Shown: piece after piece, positions 8,202-11,773 of the stretch | Position numbering within the stretch: position 1 is the first letter of the stretch | Layout of the letters: each line of letters begins with the position of its first letter | Source: Fibrobacterales bacterium | GTDB lineage: Bacteria; Fibrobacterota; Fibrobacteria; Fibrobacterales; JAOPTW01 | Assembly (NCBI GenBank): GCA_051532055.1 | Contig: JAOPTX010000026.1 | Location: 1 to 38,821 of the forward strand | Direction: 5' to 3' | Length of the DNA: 38,821 bases | Program-made: the position numbers and the translations under genes | Notes under the pieces: model-generated | What the model was told of the DNA's origin: nothing | The model's database searches: none | Seen by the model: only the letters and a program-made list of their open reading frames with translations

Positions 8202-9833
8202 ATGCACAGTTCTGTTGCTGATCAGTCTTTGGATTTTTTGTTTGTTCATGTTCCCAAACCAAGTAATTATTACAAACCCTTAGATGAATTTACCTTTATC
8301 AATTATATACCCATGGGTGTCTTTGCAATCTGTGACCTCTTAAATCGTCATGCGGTACGGTCACGCATTAAACATTTAGGTCTCGAAACAATTTTAGATG
8401 AATCCTTTTCTATTGCCGATTGGGTGAACGAACATAAAGTCCCTGTGGTTGGACTCTCGCTCCACTGGCACTATCAGTCCTTTGATGTGATTGATGTCGC
8501 TCAAAAAATTAAAAGAAAAAATCCCGATACGGTTATTGTACTTGGGGGCTTGACTGCCAGTCGCTTTGCCGAAGAGATACTTAGTGAATTTGATTATATC
8601 GACGCAATTATTACCGGAGATGCTGAAGGAGGAATTGTATCATTTGCTCAAACAGCGGTAACCGAAAATAAGGATTTTGAAGCGGTGAAGAATTGTGTTT
8701 GGCGTACAGCATCTGGAGAGGTTATTCATAATGGTACAACCTATGTGGCAGATGGAGCGGCGCTCAGTGCATTGGATTATGCCAATCTTGCTCTGTTAGA
8801 TAATGCACAAAAGTATAGAGAATATTATAGAATGCCTATGTTTTGGATGAATCACGAATCGGTTTCTCAAAACTTAAAAATGCGCTTAGGTGCTGAGTCT
8901 TTGTTCCCGTTAGCGCTCGGAAGAGGGTGCCCTGCAAATTGTACTTTTTGTGGGGGAGGCAGTGATGCACAGAAGAGTATTTGTAACCGTACCGATTTTA
9001 GTGTGCGCAGTGTTGATTCGGTTATTGAGACTATGAAAAGTGCAATCGATCATGGGTATACCGGTTTTATAACCTGTTTTGAGCCGACTCCTGTGGATGA
9101 TCGCTGGAACCTCGAATGGCTTAATGCTATTGGGGAGAATGGAATAGACTGCGGTGTTACTTTTGAATGCTGGGGACTCCCTTCTGAAGCATTCATTCGT
9201 ACCTTCAAAGAAAATACTCAAGGTAACCGTTCGCTCATTGCTCTTTCTCCTGAAACGGGGTCCGAAAAAGTGCGCAGAGAGAATAAATCATTTTATTATA
9301 GCAATGAAGCGTTGTACAAAACTATGGAAACCTTGCTTGAATGTAATGTGTCAACCATACTTTATTTTACTGCGGGAATTCCCGGTGAGAGTGCTTCTGA
9401 CATACAAGAAACTGTTGCGTTAAGTAAAGACTTAAAGAAACGGTTTGGTAAAATTATTGATGGCATTTTCTGTTTACCGGTGCAAATTGAACCCGGTGCT
9501 CCCTTGTTTGAGAATCCAGAGCAATATGGCGTTGATTCAAAACGCTCGTGCTTTTTGGATTTCTATAACTCTCATGGACGGTGTGATTCTGGCCCGTATG
9601 ATTACCTTGGGTATGTGACTGATGCGCTCAAAGAGGCAGATGGAGATCTTGATACTTTTAACAAGCATATTCAAAAAGTACAGTGTAAACATTTTTGTAC
9701 TGCAACTCCGGCAATTATCAAGAAGCTTGGGTTAGAGTTCTTATCACCGCACCTCTGTAAAATGAGGCATAAGCAGTGGAAGAAAAGGGGGCTTGGGAAG
9801 GTTGCGACGGAGAGGCGGACGTTTAGTTCCTAA
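8202..9833 (+). CDS. Cobalamin-binding radical SAM protein
   Basis: B12-binding region (VGLSLHW...VLGGLTAS...GDAE) and RGCPANCTFC CxxxCxxC motif; SD AAGGAG upstream. Confidence 0.9.
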   Translation: MHSSVADQSLDFLFVHVPKPSNYYKPLDEFTFINYIPMGVFAICDLLNRHAVRSRIKHLGLETILDESFSIADWVNEHKVPVVGLSLHWHYQSFDVIDVAQKIKRKNPDTVIVLGGLTASRFAEEILSEFDYIDAIITGDAEGGIVSFAQTAVTENKDFEAVKNCVWRTASGEVIHNGTTYVADGAALSALDYANLALLDNAQKYREYYRMPMFWMNHESVSQNLKMRLGAESLFPLALGRGCPANCTFCGGGSDAQKSICNRTDFSVRSVDSVIETMKSAIDHGYTGFITCFEPTPVDDRWNLEWLNAIGENGIDCGVTFECWGLPSEAFIRTFKENTQGNRSLIALSPETGSEKVRRENKSFYYSNEALYKTMETLLECNVSTILYFTAGIPGESASDIQETVALSKDLKKRFGKIIDGIFCLPVQIEPGAPLFENPEQYGVDSKRSCFLDFYNSHGRCDSGPYDYLGYVTDALKEADGDLDTFNKHIQKVQCKHFCTATPAIIKKLGLEFLSPHLCKMRHKQWKKRGLGKVATERRTFSS

Positions 9834-9837
9834 ATTG

Positions 9838-9853
9838 AGGGGCTTAGGCCCCT
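9838..9853 (+). terminator. GC-rich hairpin just after the radical SAM stop (possible terminator or stabiliser)
   Basis: AGGGGC-TTAG-GCCCCT; no clean U-tract follows. Confidence 0.35.
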
Positions 9854-9948
9854 GGTTGTGAAGTTATTCGCTCTATCTCATCATTATTAGTTCGATTTCC
9901 ATTTCTATTTATCTTCTCATTTGTTTTCCTTTTTTCCTTTTTATAGAG

Positions 9949-10852
9949 TTCCCAGCGCGTCTTGTACTGGTCGCAGATGAAATCTGCTGCTCGTACATGC
10001 AACCGCACTGGAGTCGGCCCAACCTTTTTGATGTCAAAAAGGTTGGATAAAAACCACTCTTTGCAGAGAGCAACATTACAAATGCTTTGTACATCTGGTT
10101 CAGGTTACGCTGATCTGTACCTATCATGAGTTGATTGGTTTCTCGGTTACTGAGTATAAAATGTCATCAAGCACATGGTGTAGCTTTAACCTTTCAGTTG
10201 TGTGCGGGCTAGTTTGTACTTCTTTGTATGGTGTCGCTATGCAAGGGCGCGGTTGTAATGTAAAATGTGCTCCGCAGCATCGGTGCTAAGTATTTACCAC
10301 AACATATCCGTAATGATTCCTATAACATAAGTGGCTCAATTTGAACCTGTTTGAGAGTATAGAGCACGCCCAATACCTTGCCACAAAACGGTTATGGAGT
10401 TATAATAATGAACGACCGCATAAAGCTAATGGTGGGCTACCGCCCAAAATGATGCTGAAGGCGGCTTAACCTCTACTTATTACGTCAGTTAATAATGAGG
10501 TTGCACTTCACCCGACTATGTGTAATCTTTATCACGGATGAACTGACTGATAAGGATATGCCGATGGTGATGGGGCAGTTGCCGGGGTAAGGAGTGGGGA
10601 GTTATATTGGACGGTAATCTCTCTTGTAATATTCACTAAAAGAACTCTTGGTAATGTTAAAGTTTTAAATAATTAAAACCCGCTATTGGTACGACCAACA
10701 AGGTAGATTAGCGCGAAGAGCGGTAATTAACATCTCACAAACATACAGTGTATGTTTGTGTGTGTATTACGCGTGATGGGATTACCTATTCTGTCGCCCC
10801 GAAGTGTGGTGATCCATGAGGATCAGTCTACGGAGGGTTAACTATCTACTTG
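9949..10852 (+). ncRNA. Candidate large, highly structured non-coding RNA (~900 nt), class unassigned
   Basis: No credible ORF; more than 20 hairpins and long-range stems seen by eye, including perfect 12-bp (10019-10046) and 11-bp (10736-10760) stems and a closing stem 10699-10708/10844-10852; repeated G-U pairs on the + strand. Boundaries approximate. Confidence 0.65.
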
Positions 10853-10882
10853 CCTGCCTATTTTATAATATATGGAGAACGT

Positions 10883-11773
10883 ATGGATAGTATGCTAAAA
10901 AACGATGTGATGTCATTTGAAAAAAATCTAAAATCTAAGATATATACGGTCAGGGGCATACAGGTGATGTTAGATAAAGACATTGCTGAGTTATATGGTG
11001 TTAAACCAATTCGTCTCAGAGAGCAGGTAAAAAGAAATATTGAACGATTTCCTTCTGATTTTATGTTTCAAATCGGCGATTCTGAACTAAAATCAATGGT
11101 ATCGCAATTTGCGATACCACCAGTTAAATATTTCGGCGGTACGAATCCTTATTTTTTTACTGAACAGGGAGTTGCGAGTTTATCAGGGGTGCTTAAGAGC
11201 AAAAAAGCAATTGAAGTTCATCTTCACATAATGAGGGCATTTGTAGCACTTCGTCGTAATAAGGAAGTGAATACATTAGTCCACCATAGAATTGATTGTG
11301 TTGAGGCAAAAGTTGCTAAGCATGAGCAGTTGTTTGAAAAAGTATTTGACGCTTTAAGTTTGCAAGAGTTGCCAAAACAAGGTGTTTTCTATGACGGACA
11401 AGTATATGATGCACATAGATTTAGTACAGACCTTATTAGATCAGCAAAGCAGTCAATAATTGTTATAGATAACTTCATAGATGATACGGTATTAACTCTC
11501 CTGTCAAAACGTAATACCGATGTGAGTGCGAAGATCTATACCAAAAAAATATCTAAGCAAATGGAGCTGGATCTGCAGAAGCATAATGAACAGTATCCCG
11601 AAATAACAATTAGACAGTTTTCCCAGTCACATGATAGATTTTTGATTATTGATAAGGATGGAGTGTATCACATCGGAGCTTCACTTAAGGACTTAGGTAA
11701 AAGCTGGTTTGCTTTTTCAAGAATTGAAATGGATGTTAAAGATATTCTAGATAAGTTACCTTATAGTTCCTGA
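10883..11773 (+). CDS. ORF6N domain DNA-binding protein with C-terminal PLD-like domain
   Basis: IYTVRGIQVMLDKDIAELYGV...VKRNIERFPSDFMFQ...FTEQGVA ORF6N signature; C-terminal HDRFLIID...YHIGASLKDLG. ATG 10883 has SD GGAG (10874-10877) and is preferred to TTG 10850. Confidence 0.9.
   Translation: MDSMLKNDVMSFEKNLKSKIYTVRGIQVMLDKDIAELYGVKPIRLREQVKRNIERFPSDFMFQIGDSELKSMVSQFAIPPVKYFGGTNPYFFTEQGVASLSGVLKSKKAIEVHLHIMRAFVALRRNKEVNTLVHHRIDCVEAKVAKHEQLFEKVFDALSLQELPKQGVFYDGQVYDAHRFSTDLIRSAKQSIIVIDNFIDDTVLTLLSKRNTDVSAKIYTKKISKQMELDLQKHNEQYPEITIRQFSQSHDRFLIIDKDGVYHIGASLKDLGKSWFAFSRIEMDVKDILDKLPYSS

Follow-up and report, generated by a model that had tools for sequence, protein, structure and literature searches.

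A stem-rich gene-free gap in a Fibrobacterales genome as a probable patchwork of a genus-restricted structured repeat and gene relics

The window analysed here is a 38,821-nt stretch of DNA, contig C26 of the 181 contigs that make up the genome of a Fibrobacterales bacterium (G000). Its only gap longer than about 300 nt between open reading frames (ORFs) of at least 100 aa runs from 9834 to 10849 (1016 nt). This gap lies between a gene for a B12-binding radical SAM protein (8202-9833, stop codon at 9831-9833; Pfam Radical_SAM and B12-binding) and an ORF6N-domain gene (from 10850 or 10884 to 11773, Pfam). An earlier note on this DNA had rightly singled it out as the window's only gene-free gap of about 1 kb, and had read positions 9949-10852 as one ornate non-coding RNA (ncRNA) of ~900 nt on the + strand, either a divergent relative of GOLLD, ROOL, OLE or HEARO or a new class. 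Our analysis points in another direction. The gap is probably an end-to-end patchwork of four things: a copy of an interspersed repeat, the stump of a transposase gene, the tail of a gene resembling a type I restriction R subunit, and the spacer and promoter region of the ORF6N gene.

The patchwork becomes apparent when the gap is compared with other genomic DNA. In BLAST searches against the window's own assembly, the parts of the gap have separate relatives on different contigs: six other contigs hold relatives of 10008-10321 (65-81% identity), a place on contig C42 is 83% identical to 10326-10444, and contig C31 matches 10508-10646. The genome of a sister species (G001) provides a second comparison. 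Its orthologous locus has only 8454-10261 in common with the window and is divergent after that, with the same repeat copy at the same place and different DNA following. Both genomes are fragmented metagenome-assembled genomes (G000 94% and G001 91% complete), so intact insertion sequences or repeat copies may be missing from them.

The first part of the gap, at 9905-10325 on the + strand (5' limit approximate), is a copy of a composite interspersed repeat with a truncated 3' tail, recognised by an nhmmer profile with an E value of 8e-80. Directly after it, at 10326-10469 on the same strand, stands the C-terminus of a DDE transposase (integrase core), which ends at its own stop codon. The match to Pfam rve_3 scores 31.3 bits (cut-off 26.5, E 1.8e-7) and covers profile positions 27-67 of 67, that is, only the last ~45 codons. 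When the whole of G000 was scanned with rve_3, two places alone were found. The match in the window scores 30 bits and contains one TAA; that on C42 scores 80 bits and sits in a 115-aa open frame, far too short for a whole transposase. The two relics share 32 of 42 aa (tblastn, E 1e-20), with 83% DNA identity at C42:163352-163470.

The second relic, at 10508-10618 on the + strand, consists of two in-frame pieces, with one stop, of a C-terminal tail like that of a type I restriction R subunit (tblastn). Positions 10510-10560 match residues 113-129 of a 220-aa ORF on C31 (15/17 aa), while 10555-10608 match its residues 201-218 (13/18 aa, with an in-frame stop). Since both pieces lie in one frame, ~71 codons have been deleted between them; ~35 codons remain. 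The 220-aa tail on C31 has no Pfam, NCBIfam or PDB sequence match, and the name R subunit rests on a Shewanella plasmid gene for a 1090-aa DEAD/DEAH helicase, whose last ~205 aa are 66% identical to this tail. The plasmid gene directly follows genes for a DNA methyltransferase (hsdM-type) and a specificity subunit (hsdS-type), in the place of hsdR. Neither relic can be functional: the transposase stump is without a complete catalytic core and the R-subunit-like tail without the helicase/ATPase body. The other reading frames of the gap gave chance-level Pfam matches only, such as DpnI at E 0.0057, below the cut-off.

Between the transposase stop and the point where the R-subunit-like gene is cut lie 38 unassigned nt (10470-10507) with a hairpin (AACCTC..TTATTA/TAATAA..GAGGTT), for which searches of the window's own assembly found no relatives. 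Possibly they are the end of the dead insertion sequence. In a likely history, the ORF6N gene would once have been preceded by a type I restriction R-subunit gene, into which an insertion sequence jumped; later deletions would have taken most of both and brought the stumps beside a repeat copy that already stood behind the radical SAM gene.

We then asked how these parts bear on the idea of a single RNA. In its favour, the gap is the only long gene-free one in the window, it holds many stems, and as a whole it folds better than chance on the + strand, with a z score of -3.82 and none of 20 shuffles as good. Inspection by hand found stem 1 (CCAG 9952/CTGG 10008, TGTAC 9963/GTACA 9993, GCAGAT-GAA-ATCTGC 9973-9987) and the perfect 12-bp stem 2 (10019-10046) exactly where they had been placed, and most of the listed stems are present in the minimum free energy (MFE) fold. 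Yet the - strand of the whole region folds equally well (z -4.15, 0/20 shuffles as good), and the excess is confined to the outer segments. Positions 9948-10325 reach a z score of -2.36 on the + strand (1/100 shuffles as good) and -3.24 on the - strand (0/100), and 10621-10852 reach -3.95 (1/200). In sharp contrast, the middle third, 10326-10620, gives a z score of -0.92, with 37 of 200 shuffles as good, so that folding beyond chance holds for the whole and for its two ends but fails here. Stems 5-8 of the earlier note belong to this segment and are at chance level, and 10326-10618 is former coding DNA of two unrelated genes. Stem 5 links the tail of the repeat (10307) to the transposase relic (10391), so that pairing of nearly all of the gap as one RNA is not supported.

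The strand argument fares no better. The earlier note had taken G-U pairs as a sign of a + strand RNA, but neither the folding z scores nor the counts of G-U versus A-C show a strand preference: in the supported helices, 21 cells pair only on the + strand (G-U), 15 of them in one column pair, against 16 that pair only on the - strand (A-C). The absolute energy is lower on the + strand (-287 versus -249 kcal/mol), but the shuffles match this (-250 versus -218), and thus the difference reflects a G/U-rich composition rather than a + strand RNA. Nor does the region match a known family. Rfam, whose families include GOLLD, ROOL, OLE, HEARO, RNase P, tmRNA and the group II intron, gave 0 matches at gathering score in the whole window, and a lax scan of 9700-11000 yielded 4 hits, all with E values of at least 1.2 and with 14-20 bits against gathering scores of 49-81. 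The earlier note had itself named a decayed protein gene as evidence against its reading. Decayed protein genes do lie inside the interval, its homology is piecewise, and the orthologous locus shares only the first part. The reading of 9949-10852 as one RNA, whether an outlying relative of the large ncRNAs or a class of its own, is therefore almost certainly wrong.

The ornateness of the gap has three sources. The repeat contributes its conserved hairpins (stems 1-4), two mini-insertions add palindromes (at 9961-10004 and at 10704-10766), and the former coding DNA pairs by chance (stems 5-8). A stem-packed gene-free gap can thus arise from debris of this kind.

The repeat itself deserves closer attention. 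Its family has a length of about 330-560 nt and a fixed order, namely a pyrimidine tract, a TA-rich box, hairpins P1 and P2, an AAAA linker, hairpin P3, a core of ~190 nt and, in some copies only, a long imperfect 3' hairpin. In the window, P1 occupies 9951-10012 (CCAGCGC... / ...GCACTGG, from the MFE fold and the alignment); it is GC-rich, and its sequence differs among copies. P2 is the perfect 12-bp stem at 10019-10046 and, together with the AAAA linker, the most conserved part of the family. P3 (CTC..GAG) follows at 10057-10068. The apex of the 3' hairpin is missing from the window copy, which ends at ~10325, at the transposase stump. A covariance model of the family (R1; 239 positions, 27 pairs) scores the window copy at 258.5 bits over 10024-10263, and BLAST similarity to the copy on contig C115 extends over 10008-10321.

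Two modules of the repeat are optional, a 44-nt palindrome in the P1 loop and a 74-nt block of two hairpins after P2 and before P3. The window copy carries the former at 9961-10004, where it forms the inner part of stem 1. This insertion is missing from the orthologous G001 copy, and a metagenome DNA contig joins 9961 to 10023, which is a shorter form without it; in G001, two other copies have near-identical insertions in the loop of P1. In separate observations, a palindromic unit of ~41 nt (consensus near CTGGTCGCA...TGCTGCTCGCCCAAGCATCC) that is related to the window's 44-nt insertion was seen at G000 C30:40670-40790, in G001:C11 (L026) and at G000 C115:8407-8445, at two places as three copies in tandem. 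This looks like a second repeat family, REP-like and smaller than the first. The 74-nt module stands at the same exact point after P2 in 5 of 20 copies, one in G000 (L010:5980-6053, which is C37:88579-88652) and four in G001. Between orthologues its identity is 93%, against ~62% for their flanks.

The family is confined to two genomes. With an nhmmer profile built from the copies, seven copies were found in G000 on seven contigs (E 1e-89 to 8e-53), and G001 has 17 BLAST matches. The covariance model R1 gave 7 matches in G000 and 14 in G001; searches of the order's other 149 genomes and of the other 150 genomes in a phylum sample gave 0. By BLAST, two genomes out of 157 from the order carry the repeat. 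G000 and G001 are the sole members of their GTDB genus and family. The profile missed a 5'-truncated remnant holding the last ~100 nt of the repeat (G000 C3:61229-61330), which was found through the orthologous G001 locus; the copy counts are hence lower bounds. No relative of the repeat was detected when the nhmmer profile was run on 80 of at least 118 metagenome stretches that fit an overly degenerate motif. Rfam found nothing on the repeat at gathering score at five other repeat loci, where its only hits were a tRNA, a signal recognition particle (SRP) RNA and a weak match to a microRNA model (23 bits against a gathering score of 117). One limited literature search on intergenic repetitive elements in Fibrobacter found no description of the repeat.

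Its pairing shows compensatory changes of unusual clarity. With 15 copies, RNAalifold predicted a helix between CATTACAA.TGC (10074-10085 in the window) and GCG.TTGTAATG (10249-10260), which joins segments ~170 nt apart and closes the core. We examined a structure of 31 pairs, made up of P2, P3, this long-range helix and a small CAG/CTG hairpin, across 18 copies. In these, 93.5% of cells are paired, versus 31-46% once partners are shifted by 1-3 columns, and 11 of the 31 pairs have changed on both sides. None of 500 shuffles reaches the observed value on four of five measures; on the fifth, 'further pair types', 34 of the 500 do. P2 (helix 1) has 12 pairs with 96.3% of cells paired and four pairs changed on both sides, and at one column pair of P3 (230/241) there are 11 copies with C-G and 7 with U-A. 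The long-range helix (helix 3) shows changes on both sides in 6 of its 11 pairs, with versions that include CATTACAA/TTGTAATG, CAGTAT/ATACTG, CATCAC/GTGATG and CAACATAA/TTATGTTG. Its 5' strand is at the same time the 5' arm of a local hairpin (TACAAA/TTTGTA, with TTTGTA at 10086-10091), which covaries in 4 of 6 pairs, and the two pairings, sharing these bases, are mutually exclusive.

For P1, the MFE folds show a hairpin at the corresponding position in 17 of 20 copies, and these have eight or more different stem sequences. A model-fitted alignment of 21 matches, in which 13 of 27 pairs changed on both sides, leans towards structure, with three rows misaligned at P2. On noisy alignments of all copies RNAalifold recovered only P2, P3 and small helices, and a brute-force helix screen, otherwise too permissive, ranked the long-range helix top. 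We take these comparisons to mean that the hairpins of the repeat and one long-range helix are kept by compensatory changes. The conserved secondary structure claimed by the earlier note thus stands for about the first 40% of the region (about 9948-10325), where it belongs to a multi-copy repeat, and falls for one large RNA.

We next considered where the copies lie. Their neighbours are unrelated housekeeping genes with no recurrent partner, and one copy follows a tRNA-Phe gene. Where an upstream ORF of at least 90 aa ends no more than 130 nt away, it is co-oriented with the repeat in 10 of 12 copies, although three pairs among the 10 are orthologues. As most copies stand right behind a co-oriented gene, they are probably co-transcribed with it and fold in the 3' untranslated region (UTR), where the repeat could stop or stabilise the upstream transcript.

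The place of the window copy raises another possibility, namely that the repeat and the transposase stump behind it come from one insertion sequence, with the repeat as its non-coding end, and that the other copies are solo ends. Repeat and rve_3 relic do abut in the same orientation, with the junction at ~10325/10326. However, among the loci examined (all seven copies of G000 and part of those of G001) an rve_3 match lies beside the window copy only, and the C42 relic has no repeat next to it. Moreover, the relic is the 3' end of its gene, so the repeat sits where the 5' two-thirds of that gene should be. In the genomes examined we saw no intact element that encloses an rve transposase and has the repeat for its left end. 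We consider this origin very unlikely.

Three orthologous copies are common to both species, and they have fared differently. The window's pair has a core that is 206/213 identical (97%), versus 322/459 (70%) at the third codon positions of the adjacent gene, while the cores of the other two pairs are only 57% and 61% identical. The identity of P1 and P2 together is 88%, 94% and 81% in the three pairs, against 70%, 76% and 63% at third positions of the gene just upstream. In one orthologous pair (C57/g1_C45), three long-range pairs differ on both strands at once, which suggests that copies have exchanged whole cores instead of mutating step by step. Deletions in one ancestral copy have removed complementary parts of it in the two species, and at another locus one species has two copies tail to tail and the other only a P1 remnant.

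These observations could be accommodated by a family of multi-copy structured RNAs, either small-RNA genes that each have a promoter or an element that acts in cis in the 3' UTR. A T-rich tract and a TATAG-like box a few bases before P1 would then be the putative promoter, and the RNA would need the long-range helix, and a switch between it and the local hairpin, in order to function. Both-sided changes in 6/11 and 4/6 pairs of these two pairings, P1 pairing kept with at least eight different stems, the well-preserved core of the window's pair (206/213 versus 322/459) and of P1 and P2 in all three pairs (81-94% versus 63-76%), a TA-rich box at a fixed distance before P1 in most copies and the location behind co-oriented genes would all suit such RNAs. 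What they would leave unexplained is the lack of a strand signal (G-U 21, with 15 in one column pair, versus A-C 16, and a z score no better on the + strand), the two of three orthologous cores at 57-61% identity, the confinement of the family to two genomes and the lack of an Rfam match; copies lose parts by deletion, which implies that many are not maintained. We therefore regard the structured-RNA family as unlikely. Its more specific form, a large (about 330-560 nt) structured RNA class with a conformational switch that acts in the 3' regions of preceding genes or in trans, we likewise judge doubtful.

The repeat is instead best filed, on our analysis, with composite interspersed repeats of the BOX, BIME and ERIC type, as a genus-restricted family that is itself new and of a known kind. 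It would be a non-autonomous, largely selfish element that is reshuffled by recombination between copies, and the near-invariant P2 and the variable yet always paired P1 would be kept because the element requires them in order to spread or to persist.

BOX elements of Streptococcus pneumoniae offer the nearest likeness. They are described as modular, strongly folded and intergenic, co-transcribed with their neighbours, limited to a species and its closest relative, without a transposase of their own, and judged largely parasitic with slow turnover (PMC3049150). The fixed module order, optional modules, extensive secondary structure and restriction to close relatives are found in our repeat as well. 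It differs in having no sequence relation to BOX and in its length (about 330-560 nt, whereas BOX is typically <200; PMC3049150). It is also far less common, with 7 copies in G000 and 14 in G001, and contains a long-range helix that covaries. We found in it none of the terminal inverted repeats that have been proposed for BOX and ISSpn2 (PMC3049150).

REP and BIME elements of enterobacteria and REPINs of Pseudomonas, as that source describes them in part (PMC3049150), resemble the repeat in their GC-rich palindromes behind genes, for which P1 and the 44-nt unit are the counterparts. Further likenesses are the mosaic arrangements and a possible role at transcript 3' ends. The repeat differs from them in that searches of G000 and G001 turned up no partner Y1 transposase (RAYT), in its copies, which number tens and not hundreds, and in a unit much larger than 20-40 bp. 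With MITEs (miniature transposable elements with inverted repeats) such as Correia and ERIC, it shares a non-coding, dispersed and highly base-paired nature and the ability to fold in transcripts (PMC3049150). In contrast to those elements, no terminal inverted repeats or target-site duplications were seen in it, and its G+C content (0.38-0.46 over the modelled core) is no lower than that of the surrounding window.

Larger RNAs and guide-RNA systems make poorer matches. The size range of the full-length repeat, its several hairpins and its long-range closing helix recall GOLLD, ROOL, OLE and HEARO, but the repeat is multi-copy, decaying, restricted to one genus and without an Rfam match on the window or on five other copies. 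No HNH/IscB or TnpB partner was found for it, TnpB having been searched as PF07282 in both genomes. It is equally unlike the guide RNAs of IS200/IS605 elements (TnpB reRNA), as neither genome yielded a TnpB and the neighbours of the copies are housekeeping genes.

A number of points weigh against filing the repeat among selfish elements. By eye, no terminal inverted repeats or target-site duplication were seen at the ends of the family, and there is no clean empty site, the two candidate sites being partial remnants. The Y1 transposase family (PF01797), found in 6 of 14 reference genomes in a control search, had 0 matches in G000 (94% complete) and G001 (91% complete), and TnpB (PF07282) had 0 matches in the same two genomes, which are only 91-94% complete. 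Among the loci examined, the window copy alone adjoins a transposase relic. The copy numbers, 7 and 14, are low for a parasitic repeat. The evidence for pairing has to be read with care too, because the covariation comes from ~20 related copies of two genomes, the shuffles ignore relatedness and related sequences can beat shuffles without structure, and because recombination between copies could carry both strands of a helix together. Finally, a covarying long-range helix, two exclusive covarying pairings and a core at 97% versus 70% would also fit a functional structured RNA.

Under either view, the family is an undescribed, genus-restricted repeat of uncultured marine Fibrobacterales. If it is transcribed, it is a candidate 3' UTR element or RNA family, and to our knowledge almost no regulatory RNAs have been described in the phylum Fibrobacterota. 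Copies differ by indels of 1-2 nt as well as by their modules. As a marker, the repeat could help to type strains and to follow recombination in these genomes.

Transcription of the locus was looked at in one small metatranscriptome from the same sample, available as contigs only. RNA contigs at a depth of ~3-5 lie on 9028-9329, 9591-9788, 10455-10609 and 10975-11188, and none lies on 9812-10415; contigs this shallow are too weak to show the presence, absence, ends or strand of a transcript. A sigma-70-like site (TTGCCA-17 nt-TATAAT, 11 of 12 positions) was observed at 10378-10406 on the + strand, inside the transposase relic and facing the ORF6N gene. The RNA-library contig at 10455-10609 (depth ~3) lies downstream of this site, which may be coincidence or DNA carry-over.

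At the other end of the gap, just 3' of the radical SAM stop codon, a terminator-like GC hairpin (AGGGGC-TTAG-GCCCCT, 9838-9853, + strand) has a counterpart in G001, where the orthologous place carries the same hairpin with a different loop. A scan for consensus terminators did not flag it.

Two further observations concern the repeat in the sample and elsewhere in G000. In the metagenome run X1, the summed depth of DNA contigs over 9963-10264, the repeat core, reaches 4-5 times that of the flanks, which would fit either a large number of near-identical copies or the presence of related strains in the sample. Contigs of a second, G001-like strain occur in run X1 as well. At G000 C110:860-925, a (TTTG)n microsatellite of ~15 units directly adjoins a solitary inverted P1 remnant.

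The last part of the gap leads into the ORF6N gene. A spacer at 10619-10766, after the dead R-subunit-like gene, includes a small hairpin (TTGGTACGACCAA, 10685-10697) and ends with a 63-nt insertion (10704-10766). In G001:C104 this insertion is missing, such that 10682-10703 abuts the equivalent of 10767, and a metagenome DNA contig joins 10703 to 10767 in the same way. The insertion contains an 11-bp hairpin, which is responsible for much of the folding excess of 10621-10852.

Positions 10767-10883 (+ strand), with TATAAT, GGAG and an ATG at 10884, form a conserved block upstream of the ORF6N coding sequence. Over 10767-10841 the window is 93-96% identical to G001:C85 and G001:C104, versus 74-76% for the ORF6N coding part, and both G001 copies of the block have an extra 66 nt inside. 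We read the block, by its conservation and motifs, as a probable promoter or leader of the ORF6N gene, whose start is likely ATG 10884 and not TTG 10850; it may be a conserved operator or leader, or else the end of a mobile module. The order of R-subunit-like tail, spacer and ORF6N gene recurs at three loci in two species (window 10508-11773, G001:C85 and G001:C104), and the tail may be broken at all three, since at each it matches only in pieces.

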